From the IMG/VR virus record IMGVR_UViG_3300031228_000025, positions 1-27,071 of that record: 27,071 bases of DNA. The stretch is one strand, 5' to 3'. A program made the position numbers and the translations under genes. Position 1 is the first letter of the stretch. Every line of letters begins with the position of its first letter. Below are positions 3 to 25,759 of the stretch, one piece after another. The notes beneath the pieces were generated by a model. That model searched no databases. It was not told the DNA's origin and saw only the letters and a list, made by a program, of their open reading frames with translations. Source of the stretch: a virus. Its lineage: Duplodnaviria > Caudoviricetes.

Positions 3-809
3 CTCAGCGGCCAGACACTCGAGGAGGCCCTCGCCACCCCGTGGGAGGAGCACCTGCGCCGGGACCTCCGCGCCCTGCTCGACTGCGAGGCGGTCGTGGT
101 CCTGGACGGGTGGGCCAGGAGCCGGGGCGCCCTGCTGGAGGTCGAGACCGCCCTGCGGCTCGGGATGCCCGTGTACCAGACGATCCGCCACGGCCCCGAC
201 CCCGAGGACCTGCGCCTCGAGGGGCTGGACGAGGCGACGATCGCCCAGGTCGTGGAGGGCGCCGGCCGGGCGCTGGACTTCGAGCGGACCCTGGAGCGCA
301 TCACCGAGACCGTCCAGACCACCGTGGTGGAGGAGGGCTGGTCCGCTGGTGAGGAGCCGAACGACGGCAATGGGTTCGGCGTGGATCAGGAGCCCTCGGC
401 CGACCCGCCCCGGATCATCAACACGAGGACGGGCCTGGGCGTGTCCACGGGCGGCAACTCCCCCGACGTCGTGGTGGACCCGGCCACCGGCGCCATGAAG
501 GCCGACGGCCGCAAGCCGCGGACCGACCTCCTGCCGCCGCTGCCGCTGCTCGACATCGCGGAGGTCCTGGAGTTCGGGTCCCGCAAGTACGCCGACCGCA
601 ACTGGGAGAGGGGCTTCGCCTGGGGCCGGCCGTACGGAGCCCTCCTGCGGCACCTCCTCCAGTGGTGGGCCGGCGAGGACCTCGACGAGGAGACGGGCAT
701 GTCGCACCTGGCCCACGCCGGCTGCGACCTGCTCATGCTCCTGGAGTTCACCCACACGGAGGCGGGCACGGACGACCGCCCCCACCAGGTCCACGAGGAG
801 AACAACTGA
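3..809 (+). CDS. 5'-truncated fusion: DUF4406 (nucleoside deoxyribosyltransferase-like) N-terminal domain + dATP/dGTP diphosphohydrolase (DUF5664-type) C-terminal domain
   Basis: Frame is open from the window edge. WEEHLRRDLRALLDCEAVVVLDGWARSRGALLEVETALRLGMPV matches the DUF4406 pattern. KADGRKPRTDLLP...VLEFGSRKYADRNWERG...LRHLLQWWAGEDLDEETGMSHLAHA matches the DUF5664 pattern. Confidence 0.8.
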   Translation, partial: LSGQTLEEALATPWEEHLRRDLRALLDCEAVVVLDGWARSRGALLEVETALRLGMPVYQTIRHGPDPEDLRLEGLDEATIAQVVEGAGRALDFERTLERITETVQTTVVEEGWSAGEEPNDGNGFGVDQEPSADPPRIINTRTGLGVSTGGNSPDVVVDPATGAMKADGRKPRTDLLPPLPLLDIAEVLEFGSRKYADRNWERGFAWGRPYGALLRHLLQWWAGEDLDEETGMSHLAHAGCDLLMLLEFTHTEAGTDDRPHQVHEENN

Positions 810-4585: not shown

Positions 4586-7179
4586 GCCAGGCCCCCTGGG
4601 CCGCGGTCTACTCGGGCGAGGCTGCCCCGGAGCCCGCCGGCCGCCGGCTCGTCGAGAGCCTGGCGGACCGCGCGGCCCCGGGGCACCCGCCCATCCAGTG
4701 GATCGGCGTGCCGGCCACCAAGGTCGTCCAGGCCCGCGGGGCCCGTGATGACCTGCTCGCGGAGCTCGCCCGGCTGCGGCCGGAGCGGGTACTCACCGTC
4801 GACCCCCTCGCCCTGATGGCCCTGCGGGGCGACGCCAAGAAGCCGGCGATCATGAGCGAGCGCGGGCGGCTCCAGTGGCTGCCGTACGGCGACGACCCGG
4901 GGGACGTCGCACTGCTGCTGCCGACCATCACGCCCTCCATGGTCCGGGCGGACCAGGAGTACTTCCGAGACCTCGCCCGGGACGTCATCAAGTGGTCGAC
5001 CCAGGACGCCCCGGTGGAGACGGAGTGGCCGGACTACCACCTGCCCGAGACCGCGGACGGCCTCGAGGAGGCGCTGAAGCGGCTGGAGCCCCACGCCGTG
5101 GTGACCCTGGACGTCGAGACGACGGGCTTCGACCCCCGGACCGACGAGCTCGTCTGCATCGGGCTCGGCACGGCGACCGGGCCGTCCATCGTGGTCCGCC
5201 TGGAGCGCGACCACCGAGGCACCGGCCAGGAGTCGCCCCTGCTCGCCGAGGAGGAGCGGGTGAAGGACCTGCTCTGGGAGGCACTGTGGCCGGACCCGCT
5301 GCGCCGGGTCGTGCTCCACAACGGCAAGTTCGACCTCCAGTTCCTGGCGCAGTGGTGGGGCGCCCTGCCGGGCGAGGACGACGCCCGACTCGGCGACACG
5401 ATGCTCCTCAGCTTCCTCCTGGACGAGCGGCCCGTGCGGTCGAAGTACCGGGCCCACGGCCTGAAGGACCTCAGCCGCTACCGGTTCGACGTGCCCGACT
5501 ACGGGCTGGACCACGCGCTGTTCCAGGCGCGCTACCTGGGGCGGCCCCTCGACCCCGAGAAGCCGGACGAGGTCCCCGAGCCGCCCGACGACGAGGCCTG
5601 GGACGACTACTGGGCCTACCAGGCCATGGACACCCGCATGACGGCCCTCCTGTGGGACGAGCTCGTCAGGGAGGCCGCGGCCGAGTCGAAGGGCCTGCTG
5701 CGCTGCCACGACAACCTCATGGCGCCGGGCACCCTGGCCTTCGCCGAGACGGAGCTCAACGGCATCCCCATGGACCGGGCGTTCCTGGAGGCGGAGGCCC
5801 ACCGGGTCGGCCGCCGGATGGACCGCCGGGAGGCCGTGCTGCGGTCCGCCCTGGGCAACCCGGAGTTCAAGCCCGGCTCGGCCAAGCAGGTGGTGGCCGT
5901 GCTCCGGTCGTTCCCAGTCCTGCCCCCGCGCACCGAGAACCTCGCCCTGATGGAGCGGACCTCCGCCCATGGCCAGGCCAACGACCGGACCTCGAACATC
6001 GCCACCTCCACCTATGTCAAGTACAAGTGGCTGCCGCACGGCGAGGGCGAGCCGGTCGATCCCACCGAGCCGGTCGTCTGGCCGCTCGTCTGGAAGGGCC
6101 CGAAGCAGGGCTACTCTGCCCAGTCGACCAGCGTTGCCGAGATGCGCCTGCTGCTCAACGAGTTCCTCCTCCGGGGCCGCAAGAGGCAGGCCCGCATCCT
6201 GGACATGATCCTGAAGTGGCGGCTCGACCAGAAGTACCTCAAGACCTACGTCCTGGGGCTCCTGAACGGGCTGGACGACAAGGACCGCATCCACGCCTCG
6301 TTCAACCTGGGCGGGGCCACCACGGGCCGCCTCAGCTCATCCGGGCCCAACATGCACGCCGTCCCCAAGCGAGGGGCGGGGTCCATCCTCAACACCCGCC
6401 GGGCTTTCCGCGCCGAGCCGGGCTGGACGTTCCTCGAGGCCGACTACTCACAGCTGGAGCTCAGGGTCTCCGCGATGCTGTCCGCCGACCCCGCCATGGT
6501 CGACAGCTACCGGGCCGGGACGGACCTGCACATGCTCGTGGCGCAGATGATGTTCCAGCGCCCGGCCGAGCAGATCGACTACCAGCAACGGTACATGGCC
6601 AAGGCCGTGGACTTCGGCATCCTGTACGGCCGCTCGGCCAAGGCCATCTCCACCTCGGAGGCCATGTACTACCTCGTCCACGAGCTGGGCGGGGAGGCCT
6701 GGACCCAGGCCGAGGCCCAGCTCTTCATCGACCGCTTCCTGGACGGCTTCCCCGCCCTGCGGGACTGGATGAAGGACCAGGGCGAGCGGGCGCTGCGGGA
6801 GCGGATCATCGACACCCCCTTCGGCCGGCGACGCCGTCTGTACGCCGTCCGCAAGGACACCAGGACCATCTCCGCCATCCGGCGCCAGGGGGTCAACACC
6901 CCGATCCAGAGCGTCGCGTCGGACATCTGCCTCTCGGCGGTCATCCGGCTATGGCGCTCCCTGGACCCCGCCGAGGCCCGGCTCCTGTCCATGGTCCACG
7001 ACTCCATCCTGCTCGAGGTCCGGCAGGACGCCGTGGACCGCCTGGCCCCCGAGGTCCGGCGCCTGATGGAGACCACGCCCGACGAGCTCCGCGGCTCGCC
7101 GGTCCCCTTCTCGGTCGACGTCAAGGTCGGCCCCACCCTCCATGACTCCGACATGCACGACTGGGAGGCACCCGAATGA
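4582..7179 (+). CDS. polA: Family A DNA polymerase with 3'-5' exonuclease and degenerate N-terminal UDG-like domain
   Basis: ExoI DVETTG, ExoII HNGKFD, ExoIII YQAMD, TGRLSSSGPN, motif A ADYSQLELR, motif B RYMAKAVDFGILYG, motif C VHDS. Start placed at ATG 4582 by translational coupling. Confidence 0.95.
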   Translation: MSQAPWAAVYSGEAAPEPAGRRLVESLADRAAPGHPPIQWIGVPATKVVQARGARDDLLAELARLRPERVLTVDPLALMALRGDAKKPAIMSERGRLQWLPYGDDPGDVALLLPTITPSMVRADQEYFRDLARDVIKWSTQDAPVETEWPDYHLPETADGLEEALKRLEPHAVVTLDVETTGFDPRTDELVCIGLGTATGPSIVVRLERDHRGTGQESPLLAEEERVKDLLWEALWPDPLRRVVLHNGKFDLQFLAQWWGALPGEDDARLGDTMLLSFLLDERPVRSKYRAHGLKDLSRYRFDVPDYGLDHALFQARYLGRPLDPEKPDEVPEPPDDEAWDDYWAYQAMDTRMTALLWDELVREAAAESKGLLRCHDNLMAPGTLAFAETELNGIPMDRAFLEAEAHRVGRRMDRREAVLRSALGNPEFKPGSAKQVVAVLRSFPVLPPRTENLALMERTSAHGQANDRTSNIATSTYVKYKWLPHGEGEPVDPTEPVVWPLVWKGPKQGYSAQSTSVAEMRLLLNEFLLRGRKRQARILDMILKWRLDQKYLKTYVLGLLNGLDDKDRIHASFNLGGATTGRLSSSGPNMHAVPKRGAGSILNTRRAFRAEPGWTFLEADYSQLELRVSAMLSADPAMVDSYRAGTDLHMLVAQMMFQRPAEQIDYQQRYMAKAVDFGILYGRSAKAISTSEAMYYLVHELGGEAWTQAEAQLFIDRFLDGFPALRDWMKDQGERALRERIIDTPFGRRRRLYAVRKDTRTISAIRRQGVNTPIQSVASDICLSAVIRLWRSLDPAEARLLSMVHDSILLEVRQDAVDRLAPEVRRLMETTPDELRGSPVPFSVDVKVGPTLHDSDMHDWEAPE

Positions 7180-7791: not shown

Positions 7792-8315
7792 TGGCCGTCG
7801 CCGCCTTCGCACCCGCCGGCGCCAAGTGCACGGGGTGCACCTGGGCCGCCGAGAACCACGAGCCCTCCGCCCTGCCCGCCCGGCTGGGCCTCACCTGCGG
7901 CGAGTACTCGCCGGCCCAGGCCGCCCGCCCGGCGGGCATCGACTGGGACGCCCTCGAGCGCCAGGCCCAGCACGAGAGCGGCCGCAACGCCGCCGGCGAC
8001 CAAGTCTACCGGACCACCAAGGGCTTCAAGACCTCGGTCTCCGACTACGTGGCCGACCCCGACGGCGAGGGGCACCTGCTCTGGACCGGGGACTTCGTCA
8101 CCGTGACCCGCGAGAACGGGACGGAGACCTTCCCCCACCCGACCCGGGGCGGCACCCACGAGCTCTGCGGCAAGGGCCACCGCTTCGTGGCCCGGGCCTT
8201 CAAGGAGGAGGCGCTGGGCTACCCGCTCCCGCAGGACGTGTTCGTCGTGAACTCCTGCGGCCGCCACGAGTGCGTGGCCCCCACGCACTTCCGGCTCCAG
8301 TACACCAAGGACTGA
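7791..8315 (+). CDS. Protein with C-terminal degenerate HNH / Zn-binding-loop domain
   Basis: LLWTG...GHRFVA...GYPLPQDVFVVNSCGRHECVAPTHF resembles the HNH_3 pattern (WtG..aHR..v.H.C....CvNP.HL), with H->N and N->A. Confidence 0.6.
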   Translation: MAVAAFAPAGAKCTGCTWAAENHEPSALPARLGLTCGEYSPAQAARPAGIDWDALERQAQHESGRNAAGDQVYRTTKGFKTSVSDYVADPDGEGHLLWTGDFVTVTRENGTETFPHPTRGGTHELCGKGHRFVARAFKEEALGYPLPQDVFVVNSCGRHECVAPTHFRLQYTKD

Positions 8316-8731: not shown

Positions 8732-8835
8732 GGCCCACCGGAGGCCGCACGGCGGCCGTGGAGGCGTAGGAAGAGGCCCGGGTGCCCTATCAGGCATCCG
8801 GGCCGTTCTCGTGCCGTGTGGGCCCTCTGGTGGCC
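8732..8835. terminator. Nested inverted repeats at the arm convergence (bidirectional terminator-like)
   Basis: Inner stem GGCCCGGGTGCC (8775-8786) / GGCATCCGGGCC (8793-8804). Outer imperfect stem 8732-8753 / 8813-8835. Confidence 0.6.
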
Positions 8836-9111
8836 TCAGCCCTCGGCGGCGGTCGTCATCCCGGCGTACAGGTCGACCGCCTCGTTGACCTCGCGCTCGT
8901 GGGTCGCCGGGCTGTAGACCGACCGGCGGATGCCGAGCACGGTCGCCACGAGGGCCAGAAGGTTGAAGGCCGTGGTCACGGCGGCCGGCACGTCGATGGC
9001 CGGGGCGACGCCGAAGTTGGCCAGGATCAGGAGCATGCCCGAGGCGGTCGAGATGACCAGGGCGGGCTCGAGGGCCAGCATTCGCTGGACGAGGTTGCGG
9101 AGGGCGTTCAT
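8836..9111 (-). CDS. Holin (two transmembrane segments)
   Basis: MNALRNLVQRMLALEPALVI..., two hydrophobic helices, RRSVYSP tail. Immediately downstream of the endolysin. Confidence 0.75.
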   Translation of the reverse strand: MNALRNLVQRMLALEPALVISTASGMLLILANFGVAPAIDVPAAVTTAFNLLALVATVLGIRRSVYSPATHEREVNEAVDLYAGMTTAAEG

Positions 9112-10160
9112 CAGGTCTCCTTGATGCGCTGTGCTTCGGCGGCCGCGATGCGGTTCCGCTCGGCTGTGGCGGCCTCTTCCTGGGCCGCCTGGACGTCCCC
9201 CTCGGTGATCCCGGTCGGGACCTCCTTGACGACCTCCTTGACCACCGTCTCGGGCGGCGGGAAGCCGTAGTTGGGCGAGGGCGGGACACGGGTGCCCGAG
9301 ATAGCAACGAGGCCCGGGCCTTCCTTGTCGTTGCCCCGCGCGTCCACGACCAGGAGCTCGTCGGACCCGGTCGGCGGATACTTCACCTGACGATAGCGCC
9401 CGTCGCTCGACTCCGCGGTCGACCGGACGCGCTCCCGGCTGGTGAACTCCTTCTTGTTGCCGGCGCCGTCGTAGAACACGGTGCCGAGGGCCGTCGCGGT
9501 CTTGGCGACGGTCCACCAGTCCTCCTGGACCGGCTTCCAGAACTGCATGTCGTCGTCTCCTTGTGGTGGTGCGGGGGCGGCCCCGTAGAGCTGGGCGATG
9601 AGCAGGTCCTGCCCGCCGCTGGTGGCGTCCGTCTCGTACCGGGTCGCCGGCTGAATCCAGCCGTGCCCGAAGTGCGGCCGGTCGATGACGGTCGGGTGGG
9701 CGATCAGCTGCCGGGCGAGCTCCCTGACGTCGGCCGCGAACACCGGGTCCCTCATGGCGGCGGCCAGGTCGGCCGGCATCCCGCAGAACGAGACGCTGAT
9801 GCAGTCTGCGTTGGGGTCGTTGTCGCGGGCCAGGATGCGGTGGACCTCGGTGAACCGGGCCTGCTCCCTGGCGCTCCCCGTCTTCGGCTTGAAGGCGAGG
9901 GACGGGTTCATGGAGTGGGACGCCCGGCCGACCGGCACGATCCACATTGCGACCGTCGAGGTGCCCTCCCGGAAGAGGAGGATGTGGTATGAGGCGTTGA
10001 CGGTCGCCTTGGTGTTGACGAAGTGCCGGATGGTCGACTCGGCGCCGGCCCGGCCGGTCCCGCCGGCGGTCCAGTGCCAGGCCAGGCCGCGCGGGGCGAA
10101 CCCGGCGACGACCGACTGCGGGACCCCCGCGGCGTAGTTCTGCTCGACCCTGAGGGCCAT
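9111..10160 (-). CDS. Endolysin: N-acetylmuramoyl-L-alanine amidase (Amidase_2-like) + C-terminal domain
   Basis: LAWHWTAG, ASYHILL, ASHS, ISVSFCG and FGHGWI motifs. Pro-rich linker. Lysis-cassette position. Confidence 0.8.
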   Translation of the reverse strand: MALRVEQNYAAGVPQSVVAGFAPRGLAWHWTAGGTGRAGAESTIRHFVNTKATVNASYHILLFREGTSTVAMWIVPVGRASHSMNPSLAFKPKTGSAREQARFTEVHRILARDNDPNADCISVSFCGMPADLAAAMRDPVFAADVRELARQLIAHPTVIDRPHFGHGWIQPATRYETDATSGGQDLLIAQLYGAAPAPPQGDDDMQFWKPVQEDWWTVAKTATALGTVFYDGAGNKKEFTSRERVRSTAESSDGRYRQVKYPPTGSDELLVVDARGNDKEGPGLVAISGTRVPPSPNYGFPPPETVVKEVVKEVPTGITEGDVQAAQEEAATAERNRIAAAEAQRIKET

Positions 10161-10363
10161 CAGGCCCCGCCCGCCCGGTCCTGCGCCTCGCCCTCGGCGA
10201 TCGCGTCCTCGGCGTCGCCGCCGTCGGCGCCGACCGGGCCGCCTGGGACGATGCTACCGTCCCCCTCGAAGCCCAGCTCGGCCGCCTCCTCGAGGGCCTC
10301 CTGGTAATCGTCGGTGTCCAGCCGGACGGTGATGCCGTCCGAGAATCTGACGTCGGTGCTCAT
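10160..10363 (-). CDS. Small acidic hypothetical protein
   Basis: GAGGAGG RBS. Coupled on both sides (ATGA, TGATG). Confidence 0.65.
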   Translation of the reverse strand: MSTDVRFSDGITVRLDTDDYQEALEEAAELGFEGDGSIVPGGPVGADGGDAEDAIAEGEAQDRAGGA

Positions 10364-10806
10364 TGTTCTCCCTCCTCAAGGTGCTCCAGCTCCAGTGCCC
10401 GCCTCTGCTCCCCGAACTCCCGGTCCTCGCGCTGGTCCTGGGTCTCCTCGGCGGCCTCCAGGTGCCGGCGCATCGAGGCCCTCATGTAGCGCCGGATGAG
10501 GAGCTGGATGACGGTCTTCGTGACCAGTAGCCCCAGCCCGGCGACGAGGACCCAGCCGACCCCGCCGGGGGCGGCCGGCGCCTCGCGCAGGAGCGCCCAT
10601 GCCCCGAGCCCGGCGAAGACCGTGTACATGACGAGCCGGATCGCCTCCTGGGCGACGTCGCCCATGGCCAGGACCCGGAAGCCGTTGGTCGGCTTGGTCA
10701 CCATCAGGTCCACGGCCGACTCGACCAGGGACAGGACGGAGAGGACCGCACCCGAGGCGGCGAGGACGAGCCAGGTGTGGGGGATGAATGCGTTGAGGTC
10801 GATCAT
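10360..10806 (-). CDS. Membrane protein (about 3 TM segments), holin-like
   Basis: Three hydrophobic segments followed by a charged C-terminal tail. Lysis region. Confidence 0.7.
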   Translation of the reverse strand: MIDLNAFIPHTWLVLAASGAVLSVLSLVESAVDLMVTKPTNGFRVLAMGDVAQEAIRLVMYTVFAGLGAWALLREAPAAPGGVGWVLVAGLGLLVTKTVIQLLIRRYMRASMRRHLEAAEETQDQREDREFGEQRRALELEHLEEGEQ

Positions 10807-18864: not shown

Positions 18865-19181
18865 CAGGGAAGCCTCCCCAGGACAAGCTCCTGGTGGGTG
18901 GGCCGGAACTCGTCCGGCATGGGGGCGGCCTGGAGCACCCGGTAGGCCTGAGCGCCGATGGCCACTCGGCTGAGCATGGGGATGTCGAGCTCCGGCCGGA
19001 CCAGCACGACGTACGCCGCGACCTCCTCGTTGCCCTCGGGGTTCATGACGAGGCGGGTCGTGGCCTGGACCGATGCGTGGACCGGGCCCACCGGGTCCGC
19101 GTAGCCGGGCCCCCGGCTGCCGCCGGCGGCGTACGGCTCGAAGGTGATCCGGTCGCGCAGCATGTGCCGCGGGATTCTCAT
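18864..19181 (-). CDS. Head closure (stopper) protein
   Basis: 105 aa, beta-rich. Located between the adaptor and neck genes. Confidence 0.7.
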   Translation of the reverse strand: MRIPRHMLRDRITFEPYAAGGSRGPGYADPVGPVHASVQATTRLVMNPEGNEEVAAYVVLVRPELDIPMLSRVAIGAQAYRVLQAAPMPDEFRPTHQELVLGRLP

Positions 19182-19594
19182 TCGATCCAGACACGGGCGC
19201 TGAGCAGGCCCGCCTCCACCAGCCGGTCCCGCGCCCGGGCGCCGAGGCGGCCCGGCAGCTTCCCGATCTGGAGCCGCCCGGCGTTCGCGAATCCGGTCAG
19301 CCCGACGATGTCGTGCTCCTCGCCGAACTCGAGCCAGAACTCCACCTGCGCGCAGGCCGCGTCGGCGAGCGCCTCCTGGTAGTCGTCCTGGGTCCAGGGC
19401 GTGACGGGGTGGGCGGGGATGAGGTGGCCCTGGGACAGCCGGCCGTCATAGGCCTGCTGGGCCCGGCCGCGCGTCGCCGTGTCGATGAGCTGGGAGGCGC
19501 GCCCGAGCATCCGGGTGGCCTCCTCCTCCTCGGGCGCCGTGTAGGTGGCGCCGAGCCAGCTGGCGAGCTGGTCGGGGGTGGCGTAGGTGGTCAT
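19178..19594 (-). CDS. Head-to-tail adaptor
   Basis: YATPDQL...LGRASQLID...ADAACAQVEFW...ARDRLVEAGLL pattern. Confidence 0.8.
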   Translation of the reverse strand: MTTYATPDQLASWLGATYTAPEEEEATRMLGRASQLIDTATRGRAQQAYDGRLSQGHLIPAHPVTPWTQDDYQEALADAACAQVEFWLEFGEEHDIVGLTGFANAGRLQIGKLPGRLGARARDRLVEAGLLSARVWIE

Positions 19595-20667
19595 GATCCC
19601 TCCAGGCGGGCCTCGAGGTCCGCCCTGCTGCCGCGGGCCGACTTGCCCAGGGCCTTCACGGCCGCCTGGAGCTCGCGATAGCCCATGGGTGGCTCATCTG
19701 ACTCGTCCATGCGCTGAGAGGCCTCCACGGGCCCCGTGTCGCGCCGTGCGCCGTCCATGAGCCTGGCGGCCATGTCCACGTCCTCCCCGGCGGAGTCGAC
19801 CTCGCGGAGGCCGGACTTCGGGTTGGCCAGGGCGTAGTGCCGCAGCGCGTCGGCGTCCTTGCCGGACGCGGTGTATCGGCCGCCGGCCAGCTTGTAGCTC
19901 CGGCCCTCCATCAGAATCCGCAGGGCGGGGTACTTCGTGTTCCGGAAGGTGGCCTGTTCGTTGCTCATCACATGGGCATCATAGGCCAGGGGCACCTCGT
20001 AGCGGGAGGGCCGCGTGAACTGGGACCGGACCCAGGTCCCCGCCGCGCCGTCCCTCCACCAGGAGTCGTCGCTCGACAGGAACAGGCCCTCGGTCAGGTG
20101 CCGGCTCTTCCCGTCCTTGGCCGGGCGCGACGGGGGCCGGTGGGCGTTCCCGTACATCGTCCGCCACTGGGGCGGGATGTCGGTCGTCCAGGCCAGGGTG
20201 TCCCGGGCGGTCTCGAGCAGCAGGGACCGGTCCATGACCACCGGCACGTGCAGCTCGTACGAGAGGGGGTCCTCGATGCCGCGCTCCTCCAGCGCCTTCT
20301 TCGTCTGCCTCAGGCTCTTGCGCCAGGGGCCCGGCTTCACCCTGGCCAGGTGCTCGGCCAGTGGCCCGCGGTGCAGGAAGGGGATGGAGCGGACCGGGCC
20401 CGTCACGAAGAAGTCGTCGTTCATGATGAGCAGCCGGTCGGCGTCGATCGCCTCGCAAGCGAGGCGCAGGTTGTCCGGCACGTTGCGCCACTTGTCCCCC
20501 GCCAGGTTGCCCTGGACGAACTCGACCCCCTTCAGCCATCGGGGCAGGTACCCCACGACCCACACCCGGGCGTGCGGCACGTTCTCCTCGAGGGTCCTGA
20601 GCGAGTAGCGCAGCTCGTCGTTGAACTCCCCCGGCCGGGTGATGTAGACGACGTCGGGCGGAATCAT
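19591..20667 (-). CDS. Stealth-family (CR2-like) phosphotransferase fused to a C-terminal SAP/HeH-like head-module protein
   Basis: DVVY, NDELRYSLRTLEENVP, LLIMNDDFF and YELHVP motifs. C-terminus YRELQAAVKALGKSARGSRADLEARL is SAP/HeH-like. Confidence 0.75.
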   Translation of the reverse strand: MIPPDVVYITRPGEFNDELRYSLRTLEENVPHARVWVVGYLPRWLKGVEFVQGNLAGDKWRNVPDNLRLACEAIDADRLLIMNDDFFVTGPVRSIPFLHRGPLAEHLARVKPGPWRKSLRQTKKALEERGIEDPLSYELHVPVVMDRSLLLETARDTLAWTTDIPPQWRTMYGNAHRPPSRPAKDGKSRHLTEGLFLSSDDSWWRDGAAGTWVRSQFTRPSRYEVPLAYDAHVMSNEQATFRNTKYPALRILMEGRSYKLAGGRYTASGKDADALRHYALANPKSGLREVDSAGEDVDMAARLMDGARRDTGPVEASQRMDESDEPPMGYRELQAAVKALGKSARGSRADLEARLEGS

Positions 20668-21338
20668 GCCGGGGGTAGGCCCTCCCAGGAGCCCAGGCGG
20701 TCGGCCCCGTGCCGGCCGACGAACGCGGCCCGGACGATCGCGTCGTGCGGGTCGGGATGGGCCCGGAGGACGTGATGGGGCGCGATGTGCCGGGCCCTGA
20801 CGCCGGCCCTGGTCGTCCGGTACCCCGCCTTCCGGGCGCGGATGGCCCAGTCCATGTCGGCCATCCTCCGCATCCGGTGGCCGTCCAGCAGCCCGACCAT
20901 GGGGAGGATGGCCCGGGGGAACAGGTACCAGGCTCCCCAGAACGAGCCGCGCATCGTCGCGTCCCAACGGCGGCGGGTCACGCCGTCGGCCTTGTAGTCG
21001 AGGGGGCTCGCGATGCCGTCGTTCCCCGCGGCCTCCAGCAGCGCCGGCAGCCACCCCCCGGGGACCCTGACGTCGATGCTGCCGACCACCACGTGGGCGC
21101 CCCCGGCCTCGGTGGCCAGGAGGGCGTGATTGACGGCGAAGGCCCAGCCCTGGGGAGGGTCCGCCCGGATGACGAGGTCCGCCCGCCCTGAGTTGCGGGG
21201 CAGGGGCCCAGAGTGGGACAGGACCAGCCGGCGCTCGCCCGCGGCCGTCGTCTCGAGGATGTTGTCGATGCAGTCCTCGGTCATCCTCAGGCTCGCCCCG
21301 TCGAAGGCCCAGGAGGGGATGATGATGTCGGTGCTCAT
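20664..21338 (-). CDS. GT2-like (GT-A fold) glycosyltransferase
   Basis: TDIIIPSW, GWAFAVNHAL, VVGSIDVRV...WLPALL, VGLLD...ADMDWAIRARKAGY. ATGA-coupled on both sides. Confidence 0.8.
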   Translation of the reverse strand: MSTDIIIPSWAFDGASLRMTEDCIDNILETTAAGERRLVLSHSGPLPRNSGRADLVIRADPPQGWAFAVNHALLATEAGGAHVVVGSIDVRVPGGWLPALLEAAGNDGIASPLDYKADGVTRRRWDATMRGSFWGAWYLFPRAILPMVGLLDGHRMRRMADMDWAIRARKAGYRTTRAGVRARHIAPHHVLRAHPDPHDAIVRAAFVGRHGADRLGSWEGLPPA

Positions 21339-21748
21339 CCGGTGAGCCGCTCCTTGATCTGGGTCGTGGACTGGAGCCTGAGCGGGATGAAGGCCAGGGT
21401 CAGCTCCAGCTCGTCGAAGTCCGCCGGGGTCATGCCGATCTGGCCGAGGTAGTCCTTGCCGCGGCCCGGCATCCAGTCGTCCCCGATCGCGAGGACGTCC
21501 GGCCGCACCCGGTAGACCAGCTCGCGCCCTGGGCCGTCGTTGACCTCGACCCGGTGGCCCAGCCTGGCCACGAGCTCCAGGCGCTCCCCCAGGGAGTACG
21601 CCGGGCGGCGTCCCTTGTAGGTCTCGACGAACTCGTCGGAGTTGACCCCGACGACCAGCTCGTCGCCGAGCTCGAGGGCCTTGAGGAACAGGTACGCGTG
21701 GCCCAGGTGCGGCACGTCGAACGTGCCGATGGTCAGGACGGTTCTCAA
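21335..21748 (-). CDS. Cytidylyltransferase, glycerol-3-phosphate cytidylyltransferase (TagD)-like
   Basis: TIGTFDVPHLGH (HxGH), GVNSDEF...KG, ER, GDDW and STTQIKER motifs. TTG start at 21748 with GGAGG 8 nt upstream. The ORF track starts it at 21808. Confidence 0.85.
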   Translation of the reverse strand: MRTVLTIGTFDVPHLGHAYLFLKALELGDELVVGVNSDEFVETYKGRRPAYSLGERLELVARLGHRVEVNDGPGRELVYRVRPDVLAIGDDWMPGRGKDYLGQIGMTPADFDELELTLAFIPLRLQSTTQIKERLTG

Positions 21749-21822
21749 GGGGCGGACCTCCAGGGGGCTCTTGGGGATGAGAGGGGCCCCGTCCCCCACG
21801 GGGCCCATCTCCCAGCATAGCG

Positions 21823-21853
21823 CGAGGGGCCGGGCGTCGTGCCCGGCCCCTCG
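21823..21853 (-). terminator. Perfect 13-bp GC hairpin after the tail tube gene
   Basis: CGAGGGGCCGGGC-GTCGT-GCCCGGCCCCTCG. No U-tract. Confidence 0.65.
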
Positions 21854-21874
21854 GCCGTTCTGGGTCGGGTTCGG

Positions 21875-22324
21875 TCAGCTCGAGGCGCTGGCCGGGGTGT
21901 AGGTGGGCTCGCCGGTCATCTCGATCGACGCCGCCCAGGAGGCCGCGTCGTTGTGGCCGCCGCCGGGCCGCGTGAGCTCCGCCGTCGCCGCGAACTGGAG
22001 GGCGTTCCCGCCCGGGTCCGTGATGCGGTAGGTCTCCTCCGCGGCCAGGCCCATCTCCTGGGCGCTGGTCTCGATGTACTCCTGCCCCGGGTCCTTCTCG
22101 CCGCTCTCGACGTCGACGAGCGCGAAACCCGCCAGCTCCCACGAGTCGCCGCGCTGCGCGACCAGGTGGGTCGGCCGCCCGTTCTCGTCGAAGCCGGTCG
22201 TGTCGGCCCGCTCCGTGGAGGGGGAGTGCGTGAGGGTGTTGAGGCCGCCGATCGGGGTCCAGGTGTCCACGGCCGTCTGGACCTCAATGGTCAGGTCGCG
22301 GGCCAGGAACTTCGTCCGTGCCAT
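21875..22324 (-). CDS. Major tail tube protein
   Basis: WTPIGGL..L...ADTTGFDENG...DPGQ...YRITDPGG...GGGHNDAASWAASIEMTGEP. GAGGAG RBS. Confidence 0.8.
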   Translation of the reverse strand: MARTKFLARDLTIEVQTAVDTWTPIGGLNTLTHSPSTERADTTGFDENGRPTHLVAQRGDSWELAGFALVDVESGEKDPGQEYIETSAQEMGLAAEETYRITDPGGNALQFAATAELTRPGGGHNDAASWAASIEMTGEPTYTPASASS

Positions 22325-22357
22325 CAGGTTGTTCTCCTCGTTGGTGTGAGGCTCATC

Positions 22358-22382
22358 GGGGCGGGCTCGACCTGCCCGCCCC
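22358..22382 (-). terminator. 9-bp GC hairpin after the major capsid gene
   Basis: GGGGCGGGC-TCGACCT-GCCCGCCCC. Confidence 0.5.
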
Positions 22383-22393
22383 TAGCCCGATGG

Positions 22394-23362
22394 TCAGCTG
22401 GACGCCGAGCCGAAGTCGCTGCCGACGTTCACGATCTTGCCGTGGTGGAACTCGGCCCCGTAGGCCAGCCCCACCTCGCCGTAAATCTGCTCGGCGTCGG
22501 CGGACCCGGTCTTGCCCAGCGGCTCCTGGAACAGGAAGCCCTTGCCCGGGATCATGAGGAAGACGGGCGCCAGCTCCTCGAGGGAGACCACGGCGAGCTC
22601 GTCGACCGGCATGTACCGGTTGAGCATGATGTTCAGGAGGCCGAAGTCGGTCTCGATCCGGACCACGTTGGCCCCGCCCACGTTCGCGGTCGTGGGCGTG
22701 TAGCCCGCGTCCGTGATGTAGGCCTTCGTCAGCTGGCGCTTGAGCGTCGAGTTGACGATGACGGTCCGGGTCTCGCCGGCCGCGATGCCGCCGTTGTCCC
22801 AGATGTCCTGGAGCAGGTCCTCGAACAGGACGCGCGTCAGCGTCGCCCCGTTCAGGTCGGTCACATTCGTCGTGATCGCCTCGAGCAGCCCGCGGGTCTT
22901 GCGCGGGGTCGCGTTGGTGGACGGCTCCGCGAAGGTGCCGTTGATGAACGCGTACTCCAGGTCGCGGGCGATCTGAGTGAGCGCCTGCGCGCTCTGCCAG
23001 GCCATCTCGTTCTGGACGTTGCTCGCGCCCGGCGTCAGGACGTCCGCATCCATCTGCCCGACCGCCGCCTGCTTGGTGTACGAGACCTCGACGGACTCGT
23101 GCACGATCTGGACCACGTTGTGGTCGAACGCCCGGACGCGGTTCTCCGGATCGGGGGCGTCCGCGCCCTCGAGGCGGGCCCGGTCACTGGCGTCCCGGAG
23201 GTCGTAGAACGACCACTCGAAGCGCTTGGCGTTCGTCTGCTCGCCGCCAGTCAGCCCGCCGATCGCCGTGATGAGCGGCGTGTCGGTGGGGCTGATGCTG
23301 AACAGCTCGCCCACGAAGTTGGGGAGGTTGAAGGTCGTCCCCTGACCCACGATGCCTGCCAT
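22394..23362 (-). CDS. Major capsid protein (SU10/DUF5309-like, HK97 fold)
   Basis: ISPTDTPL, NVVQIVHESVEVSYT, IARDLEYAFING, RKTRGL, IETDFG, LGKTGSAD..QIYGEVGL. Follows the scaffold gene. Confidence 0.9.
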   Translation of the reverse strand: MAGIVGQGTTFNLPNFVGELFSISPTDTPLITAIGGLTGGEQTNAKRFEWSFYDLRDASDRARLEGADAPDPENRVRAFDHNVVQIVHESVEVSYTKQAAVGQMDADVLTPGASNVQNEMAWQSAQALTQIARDLEYAFINGTFAEPSTNATPRKTRGLLEAITTNVTDLNGATLTRVLFEDLLQDIWDNGGIAAGETRTVIVNSTLKRQLTKAYITDAGYTPTTANVGGANVVRIETDFGLLNIMLNRYMPVDELAVVSLEELAPVFLMIPGKGFLFQEPLGKTGSADAEQIYGEVGLAYGAEFHHGKIVNVGSDFGSASS

Positions 23363-24160: not shown

Positions 24161-25759
24161 CTAGGAGCCCTCTCCCTCGTCCTGGGCGATCGCCCGCTCG
24201 CTGCGGACGCTCGTCTCCCCGGTCTGGGAGTCGGTCTCCGTGGTCATGCCGCCCGGCGCCGGTGGCTCCGGCTTGGCGGCCTGCTGCTCTTCATGGATGC
24301 GCTTGACCTCTGCGTCCACCTCCTCGCGGCTCCAGTGGGGATGGATGATCCGGACCTTGACCTCGGTGCTGGCGGCCTGGGCCGCGCTCAGCTGGGCCAC
24401 CGTCGAGGCCAGCTCCACCGGGTCCTCGGGCACTCCGGCGCCGAGCCCCACCTCCACGGTGAGGTCCCCCAGGCCGGGCCCTCTGAAGACCTCGGCGTCC
24501 ACGGCCATCAAGTTGGCCATGAGGCGCTGGATGCTCGGCCCCCACCACTGGCTCTTGCGCTTCAGGGTGAGGATGGTCTTGTTCTCGCGGATGCGGAGGG
24601 CGCTGCCGCTCTCGGCGCGGCCCTCGATCCGGATGCCGAACGTCTGCGGGGAGTAGCCGCTGTTGGAGACGATGCGCTCGACCAGCTCGATCGCCGTCTC
24701 GCGGTGCTCGAGGTACCGAATCTCGAACTGCTGGGCGAGCATGGAGCGCGCGCCGGCCTCGGCCGCGCCGGGCTCCATGTCCATCGGCTGGTAGACCTCG
24801 TGGTCGATGTCGACGTGCCCGCCCTCGTCGATGAAGTCGCGGGGCACGATGATCCGGGCCTTGCCCAGGCGAATGTCGCGCATCCACGAGGCGTACACCT
24901 CATCCAGGGCGTCGAACAAGCCCTCGGACCCGGAGAAGTCGGACAGCCCGAGGCCGCTCTGCCGCCACAGCCGGTTGGGCCGCATGTTGGGGATGTACTC
25001 GACGTCCAGGTTCGGGAAGGGCAGCTCGACCAGGGGCTCGAACCCGGTCAGGGCCAGGAGCACGTCCTCGGCGAGCCGCGTGCCGATCGCGGTCTTGGTG
25101 CCCTTGTACAGGGCGTGCTGCACGGTGGCCTTGCCGCCGCTCCCGACGGGCGCCGGGCGGTGGAGCTCGAGGTGCCGATAGATGCCCTGGTCGGTCTCCT
25201 CGACGACGCGCCACAGGAGCACCGACCGGAGCATGCCGTGCTTGAACTCAGGGATGGCCTGGTCGGCCTGGGCGATCGCCGGGATGGGGTGGTCGGCCAG
25301 CTCCTTGTCCCAGGCCGGGAACAGGTAGGCTCCGCCCATGGCCGCGGCGCTCTCGGCGCCCTCCACGAGGCGGTTGTAGAGGCCTGAGCGCTCCATGATG
25401 GTCCTCATGCGCTCCTCGGCGTCCTTGGCCTTCCTGGGCACCCTGCCGGACGCGTGGGCCTCCTTGACGCGGATACTGGGGGCCTCGCCGAAGAGCAGGG
25501 CGCCGGACACGGCCGCGAGGTCGCCCGCGACCGGCACGTGGAGCTGGGCCTTCTGGGCCTCGGGCTCCTTGCCGATCCTGCTCCAGAACTTGAACCAGCG
25601 GCTCCGGCCGCCGGAGCTCGCGCCGCCGTAGACCTCGAGCAGCCGGTCGGGGTCGCCCGAGTACCAGGCGCTCCACTCGGACATCTTCGCGTATTCGGTC
25701 GCCTGGGCCTTCGGCGGCCATGGTGCCGATGCGTCTGTGGGGAGGTTCATCCTCGACAT
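24161..25759 (-). CDS. Portal protein (SPP1 gp6/A118-like)
   Basis: WSAWYSGDP, LHVPVAGDLA, YIPN, GLSDF, DALDEVYASWMRDIRLGKARIIVP, GYSPQTFG. Directly after the terminase. Confidence 0.92.
   Translation of the reverse strand: MSRMNLPTDASAPWPPKAQATEYAKMSEWSAWYSGDPDRLLEVYGGASSGGRSRWFKFWSRIGKEPEAQKAQLHVPVAGDLAAVSGALLFGEAPSIRVKEAHASGRVPRKAKDAEERMRTIMERSGLYNRLVEGAESAAAMGGAYLFPAWDKELADHPIPAIAQADQAIPEFKHGMLRSVLLWRVVEETDQGIYRHLELHRPAPVGSGGKATVQHALYKGTKTAIGTRLAEDVLLALTGFEPLVELPFPNLDVEYIPNMRPNRLWRQSGLGLSDFSGSEGLFDALDEVYASWMRDIRLGKARIIVPRDFIDEGGHVDIDHEVYQPMDMEPGAAEAGARSMLAQQFEIRYLEHRETAIELVERIVSNSGYSPQTFGIRIEGRAESGSALRIRENKTILTLKRKSQWWGPSIQRLMANLMAVDAEVFRGPGLGDLTVEVGLGAGVPEDPVELASTVAQLSAAQAASTEVKVRIIHPHWSREEVDAEVKRIHEEQQAAKPEPPAPGGMTTETDSQTGETSVRSERAIAQDEGEGS

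Follow-up and report, generated by a model that had tools for sequence, protein, structure and literature searches.

The window, that is the whole stretch of 27,071 nucleotides analysed here, was a 27-kb fragment of a siphovirus-type genome, with about 70% GC and a completeness of 45%. Its minus strand carried the terminase, portal, scaffold, capsid and tail tube genes, three inserted genes, the head-tail connectors, the chaperones, the tape measure and the tail tip genes. The phage was actinobacteriophage-like, and the named homologs of its capsid were mostly from Actinomycetota among the matches listed. The major capsid protein (22394–23362, minus strand, 322 aa) belonged to the SU10-type HK97 family (PF17236, SU10_MCP, E 1.5e-88; PHROG 1328). 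The tail tube, or major tail, protein followed (21875–22324, minus strand, 149 aa; PHROG 3884, E 7.5e-20). The tube gene was directly behind the capsid gene and ahead of the head-tail connectors both in the window (21875–23362) and in L001, the closest relative found (4620–6069), so that both serine-ended genes sit together with the cassette in a single block. Two GC-rich hairpins were visible between the tube gene and the cassette (21779–21853, with arms at 21823–21835/21841–21853 and 21779–21792/21798–21811). Devoid of a T-run, they are possible attenuators.

The first cassette gene (21335–21748, minus strand) encoded a cytidylyltransferase-like nucleotidyltransferase of 137 aa with an HxGH motif (PF01467, E 8.4e-17). 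It likely starts at a TTG at position 21748, behind GGAGG. Its PDB matches were ethanolamine-phosphate and glycerol-3-phosphate cytidylyltransferases. The score was below every NCBIfam equivalog cut-off, including those for glycerol-3-phosphate and heptose, and reached 37.5 bits for TIGR01518 (TagD) where the cut-off is 165.4. The protein matched at 46% its homolog in the cassette of locus L191, in which a set of cytidylyltransferase, glycosyltransferase and Stealth genes recurs behind an unrelated capsid ending in DLES. The cytidylyltransferase frame was open from the TGA-C stop of the tube gene (21335–21877), and readthrough would join both proteins; this is probably due to chance. The second gene (20664–21338, minus strand) encoded a 224 aa glycosyltransferase-like protein assigned to the GT2 fold (GT-A) in the ESM Atlas, with a feature score of 0.98 and a TM of 0.80–0.82 between the Atlas model and GT2 models. 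The nearest Atlas clusters have PF00535 in 30–35% of their members. The protein's own single-sequence fold had a pLDDT of 36, and no match was found in Pfam, PHROG or NCBIfam, nor among GenBank phages. An S-I-D sequence occupied what we take to be the expected site of the DxD motif.

The third gene encoded a fusion of 358 aa. Its N-terminal part (19969–20667, minus strand) was a minimal Stealth-family phosphotransferase domain (PHROG 7999, E 2e-66). The Pfam model Stealth_CR2 gave 23.8 bits for a cut-off of 39.4, and none of CR1–4 was passed; CR2 was matched at E <= 0.01 by 61 of 67 phage homologs. A profile built from these 67 homologs matched GlcNAc-1-phosphotransferase (E 7.7e-13) and CpsY. 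The model of the domain had a pLDDT of 94.5, and the Foldseek ranks 1 to 10 were all CpsY or GNPTAB (E 4e-10 to 1e-8). Over the 67 aligned rows, N83, D84, D85 and H140 were invariant and R169 was present in at least 90%. The NDD and His residues aligned with the GNPTAB motifs, and the match of the Arg was inferred from its position. In GNPTAB the NDD and His motifs sit in the donor pocket, according to the part of the published description consulted (PMC8913297).

The C-terminal part of the fusion (19591–19968, minus strand) consisted of a homolog of the small protein encoded behind the capsid, followed by an acidic linker and by an end resembling SAP/HeH, the SAP match (E 0.01) being below the cut-off. 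Among the loci listed, 24 of the 42 clusters of the capsid family had this small protein behind the capsid, and the reciprocal profile comparison gave E 3.6e-8. Its profile had no convincing match in the PDB (best E 0.004), and no separate ribosome site was seen upstream of the C-terminal part of the fusion. The same domain also ended the last transferase of L001 and a GT4-like protein of locus L004. In L001 it occurred on its own as well as attached to a glycosyltransferase (9271–9540 and 8766–8975), and in L004 fused to the GT4-like protein (6443–6634). The Stealth genes of the unrelated loci L082, L175, L181 and L182 had C-terminal extensions which were HeH-like by eye. In L082 the Stealth gene was frameshifted at about 9990–10740, as was the capsid gene of L281 at about 9900, either by assembly error or because these are pseudogenes.

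The second and third cassette genes and the head-tail adaptor (19178–19594, minus strand, PHROG 541) each overlapped the preceding stop codon. Because the start of the adaptor overlaps the stop of the fusion, the cassette lies within the virion operon. Neither a membrane partner nor an export partner was seen among its genes. The initial annotation regarded the genes adjacent to the tube as glycosylation enzymes, an assignment supported by the enzyme families and folds described above. At the other end of the window, a plus-strand gene (809–1693) encoded a thymidylate-synthase homolog whose best PDB match was a CMP 5-hydroxymethylase (E 8.6e-23). It adjoined a gene with a dATP/dGTP diphosphohydrolase domain (96–809, plus strand). 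A modified cytosine is likely present in the DNA of this phage, to judge by these two genes.

The capsid protein ended in GSDFGSASS (SASS and stop at 22394–22408, minus strand) and the tail tube protein in TYTPASASS (21875–21889, minus strand). The final codons were TCG GCG TCC AGC TGA and AGC GCC TCG AGC TGA, respectively, in full agreement with the initial annotation, which had reported identical ends written with different codons. Four identical terminal residues are expected by chance with a probability of about 2e-5 for a given pair, and of 0.006 when all pairs of the 24 frames examined are considered. The SASS codons shared 7 of 12 bases. Only the first serine (TCG versus AGC) fell into disjoint codon blocks; the other two differences were wobble changes. 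In the 14 nucleotides made up of the stop, the three codons before it and two further bases, 12 were identical; in the 40 nucleotides 3' of the stops, 15 were. A true DNA copy was observed in a related phage, L017: DPGNP closes its capsid as well as its tube, and the two copies agree in all 12 bases compared in the codons and in 33 of the 40 nucleotides that follow the stops. There the copy (5580–5660 and 8045–8125) includes a downstream hairpin region, a third protein ends in ENP, and no glyco-enzyme was seen within 10 kb. Because the codons and the 40 nucleotides downstream diverge in the window, unlike in the L017 copy, the match is one at the peptide level. A recent DNA duplication of the ends was rejected on these counts (15/40 versus 33/40, TCG versus AGC). 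The earlier proposal of selection on the peptide in place of DNA duplication thus holds for the peptide-level match and the unmatched downstream DNA, and is weakened by two of the three codon differences being wobble; the last three codons could conceivably descend from an ancient duplication.

The portal protein (24161–25759, minus strand) ended in EGEGS and the Stealth fusion in RLEGS, so that the serine ends previously noted for these two proteins were found again. Their common EGS was within chance (for 24 frames, a probability of about 0.09 that some pair agrees, estimated from residue frequencies) and was rejected as a meaningful match. The portal of L001 ended in SANS and that of L004 had no terminal serine. 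The portal is at best faintly indicated as a possible third acceptor.

L001 was 77% identical to the window in the capsid and 75% in the tube. Both of its proteins ended in APAS, with three wobble differences between their codons. At the cassette site, L001 possessed a GT4-like gene and a GT2/GT4-like fusion instead, the GT4 label being derived from a weak Pfam match and from reading of the sequence. The next branch, L004 (support 100/98), carried an enzyme resembling that of L001, with a GSIS end. In the sister phages, then, a different cassette goes along with a different tail on both proteins. Searches for further close relatives returned L001 or nothing new: the tube query of viral contigs and the query with the post-capsid domain found L001 alone, the tube alignment against metagenomes found the window's own sequence alone, and the capsid alignment against genomes found nothing. 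No close homolog without the cassette was found.

The proposal that SASS itself is the acceptor tag found no support in the comparison with L001, with its APAS ends and its other cassette, nor in that with the mycobacteriophages Che8 (capsid and tube ending in KTGS and SDGS) and Corndog (LVGS and KGDS). SASS as a universal tag was rejected. Che8 and Corndog, the known cases, have only GS or S in common between capsid and tube. The conserved feature, as far as these sequences tell, is a terminal serine on a short tail of small residues. Forty distinct capsid and tube pairs were compared, and 21 of them ended in serine on both proteins. At least four end residues were shared in 4 of these 21 phages, for 0.19 after shuffling, and none of 20,000 shuffles reached four. 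One of the four phages had a poly-Ser run and one was L171, with PSGS on both proteins; no enzyme was seen in the flanking DNA of L171 that was examined. This suggests a phage-specific preference for the residues preceding the terminal serine.

Within the window's own capsid family, 109 loci (the best 80 of 88 and the best 29 of 30) were grouped into 42 clusters at 85%. Among these loci, a glycosyltransferase or Stealth gene was found in the DNA examined for 9 of 15 serine-ended clusters and for none of the 27 others (Fisher, 1e-5). L281 was reclassed as not ending in serine owing to its capsid frameshift and was left out of the pair tests; L282, a partial match, was left out. When whole viral records were considered, most of them fragments, GT2 was detected in 7 of 13 serine-ended cases and in 0 of 23 others among the loci listed; L006, with a cut end, and L018 were left out of this count. 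The enzyme label required eight changes on the best tree. The four starred, phylogenetically independent pairs gave 3.3 concordant and no discordant contrasts, too few for significance (sign test, p 0.25). Six of the 15 serine-ended clusters had no detected enzyme, three of them with 7–9 kb of downstream DNA examined. PF13692 was found in 0 of 37 records, L001 included, and is consequently too insensitive to show the absence of GT4-like genes. The comparison of homologs with and without the cassette, which the initial annotation had called for, could be made only with more distant relatives: the serine ends tend to follow the enzymes in them, and some persist where no enzyme is detected.

A second sample was assembled around the Stealth gene (the best 80 of 174 loci and a few additional ones, the window being excluded from the counts); its capsids and tubes were recognized by their resemblance to seeds that carried a PHROG label or an annotation. 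At 36 of these loci a capsid was visible, corresponding to 23 clusters from several unrelated families. A terminal serine was present in 17 of the 23 capsid clusters and in 10 of 20 tubes, leaving 6 and 10 without it; a serine was found in the last two places in 22 of 23 and 17 of 20, respectively. In a background of 722 crudely called genes, 66 (9%) had a terminal serine and 115 had one in the last two places. Capsids or tubes ending in serine plus one residue (SV, SI, SA, SL or SN) occurred at L174, L177, L181, L184, L188, L089 and L100; either the enzyme accepts a penultimate serine or one residue is trimmed. The tubes of L109 and L113, which have no Stealth gene, end in ISV. A serine in the last two residues was rejected as a clean marker.

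Among the loci listed, the Stealth gene was within 3 kb of the capsid or tube gene at 36 of 82, and another transferase was visible at 11 of the 46 with a capsid or tube in view. In 15 mostly complete Stealth records, GT2 was detected in one and a homolog of Che8 gp110 in none, GT4 being tested for only a few. A cytidylyltransferase was found in 1 of 31 Stealth phages. The Stealth gene adjoined a methyltransferase gene at L088 (4908–6259), L002 (475–1883) and L189 (9417–10690), as do the transferases of Che8 and Corndog; methyl-capping of the glycan is possible.

The Stealth gene was also present in cultured phages, annotated as hypothetical in Fionnbharth (gp6), Gaia (gp170) and TurkishDelight (gp22). 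Gaia ends in SSGS and VVGS. TurkishDelight ends in GSTS and CVAS, with the gene order glycosyltransferase, tube, Stealth, adaptor. Fionnbharth is a partial fit, with a capsid in GSGS and a tube in GSV. Among cluster-K-type genomes, Stealth was found in 2 of 36, both GSGS-ended and nearly identical, and 3 of the 34 others ended in GS with no GT2, GT4 or gp110 match. The Che8 gp110 homolog existed in 27 of 27 records with GS- or TS-ended Che8-like capsids and in 0 of the 36 cluster-K-type genomes, 31 of which lack the terminal serine. The Streptomyces phage Jay2Jay was a misfit: it had a glycosyltransferase, glycosyltransferase and nucleotidyltransferase cluster outside the virion operon, a capsid ending in KISA and a putative tube (gp61) ending in RNIA. 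Such a cluster was located off the virion operon both in Jay2Jay (L284, 18723–20435) and in Comrade (L285, 4717–6435), and its first glycosyltransferase was Che8 gp110-like by eye. Taken over many phages, the terminal serine on capsid and tube appears to track the glyco-enzyme genes.

It is probable that the terminal serines are the acceptors of a phage-encoded glycosylation, as in Che8, and that the link is a sugar-phosphate. The three enzymes encoded behind the tube would build a glycan on the virion, attached at the terminal serines of capsid and tube. The cytidylyltransferase would make the activated donor, an NDP-sugar or a CDP-polyol; its rarity among Stealth phages makes it an add-on donor supply. 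The Stealth domain would transfer sugar-1-phosphate or polyol-phosphate. Serine itself would be its most likely acceptor, with about even chances in our estimation, because many phages pair serine ends with Stealth and have no detected glycosyltransferase. Priming could instead be carried out by a host enzyme or an undetected transferase, and the GT2-fold protein would extend or prime the glycan. As a tentative suggestion, the enzyme may be kept at the assembling heads by the post-capsid domain fused to it. Slightly better placed, if still short of an even bet, is the idea that the tail residues ahead of the serine are adapted to the enzyme of each phage, both tails changing upon a cassette swap. 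The purpose would likely be shielding of the particle surface. We propose more speculatively a model combining these elements. In this model, Stealth modifies the C-terminal serines of capsid and tube directly with sugar- or polyol-phosphate, a post-capsid domain that it has captured tethers it to assembling heads, and the tail that it recognizes is particular to the phage; a cassette swap with co-editing of the tails would resemble a serotype switch.

Other readings were weighed against virion glycosylation. The cassette might target hydroxymethyl-cytosine in DNA, or the host envelope, the serine-rich ends being low-complexity tails that match by drift. The gene at 809–1693, closest to a CMP 5-hydroxymethylase, is in favor of this, as the GT2-fold protein could act on modified DNA. 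Known Stealth proteins act on glycans and not on serine, in the part of PMC8913297 consulted, and the glycosyltransferase clusters of the Streptomyces phages are outside the virion operon. Serine ends also occur in 6 of 33 enzyme-less clusters of the capsid family among the loci listed, and in the three cluster-K genomes. Against this, starts and stops overlap between the cassette and virion genes, one of its enzymes is fused to a post-capsid protein, and no membrane or export partner was seen in it; all 9 enzyme-bearing clusters listed end in serine, and none of 31 other Stealth or glycosyltransferase records yielded a homolog of the dCMP-hydroxymethylase (a single-protein query run without a positive control). 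We consider this reading improbable.

The serine tail might also do something unrelated to a phage-made glycan; it could, for instance, guard the C-terminus against proteolysis, bind an assembly factor or be the acceptor of a host enzyme. The persistence of serine ends in phages with no detected enzyme would be explained, and capsid and tube are both highly expressed structural genes. This sits badly with the 27 of 42 clusters of the same family that lack the serine, none of which has an enzyme among the loci listed, and with the recurrence of the association in unrelated capsid families; the reading is accordingly given still less weight. Least probable of all, and in our view highly improbable, is that a stop-codon and terminator block was copied from one of these highly expressed genes to the other and gave rise to the matched ends while the peptide itself was under no selection. 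The L017 copy is a precedent, and the window has 12 identical nucleotides of 14 around the stop. The divergent codons and downstream DNA of the window speak against it, as does the different matched 4-mer of L001 with its three wobble differences, and DNA copying leaves the link between serine and enzyme unexplained. Both of these explanations fit the data less well than virion glycosylation.

In the consulted parts of PMC12363180, PMC11600133, PMC11256854 and PMC13445384, virion glycosylation is shown only for a few mycobacteriophages, in which it lowers recognition by antibodies. A phosphodiester-linked coat made by Stealth would, if confirmed, be a new chemistry for phage particles, extending the plain sugar coats of the mycobacterial phages, with a bearing on the immunogenicity of therapeutic phages. 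Among the publications listed, we found no phage Stealth enzyme and no phosphoglycosylated virion, and Freeman et al. (2023) with its supplements may already list serine ends or these genes. New here are the cassette swap with a parallel change of the tails, the fusion of an enzyme with the post-capsid protein, and the presence of the Stealth gene in cultured phages such as Fionnbharth and Gaia. Being small and soluble, the enzyme could also serve as a model for the fold of the human GlcNAc-1-phosphotransferase, and a C-terminal serine tag with a swappable set of enzymes could become a protein-labelling tool.

In the virion O-glycosylation of mycobacteriophages, the glycan is presumably carried by the C-terminal serine. 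This system is known from Che8 (gp108–110), Corndog (gp35–38) and Myrna (parts of PMC12363180, PMC11600133, PMC11256854 and PMC13445384). The likeness to Che8 and Corndog resides in the phage-encoded transferases, in the capsid and tail tube which are the targets there, and in the serine ending both proteins as in the window. No homolog of Che8 gp108–110 or Corndog gp35–38 was found in the virion operon of the window (searched in its 13-kb copy L085, from this 45% complete contig). In their place the window encodes a cytidylyltransferase, a GT2-fold protein unrelated to them and a Stealth phosphotransferase, the last of these fused to a post-capsid protein. It resembles the Che8 type in its proposed working, but enzyme homology is lacking, and we regard it as a variant and not as a member. 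With the TagD-like cytidylyltransferases of teichoic-acid-like polymers, the window's enzyme shares the HxGH motif and a size of about 135 aa; it differs in scoring far below the equivalog cut-offs and in having no TagF-type polymerase beside it. A precedent for a sugar-phosphate diester is the serine-linked GlcNAc-1-phosphate of Dictyostelium proteinase I (in the part consulted of bioRxiv 10.1101/2025.09.30.679562), which differs in being made in a eukaryotic secretory pathway on internal serines. With GNPTAB and CpsY, the window's enzyme shares the Stealth fold and the NDD and His active-site residues (PMC8913297, in part). It is a soluble domain of about 230 aa, without spacers and below the Pfam cut-off, encoded by the phage beside the capsid or tube. 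GNPTAB acts on a lysosomal N-glycan and CpsY on a capsule, whereas the acceptor proposed for the phage enzyme would be a protein serine or a glycan on that serine.
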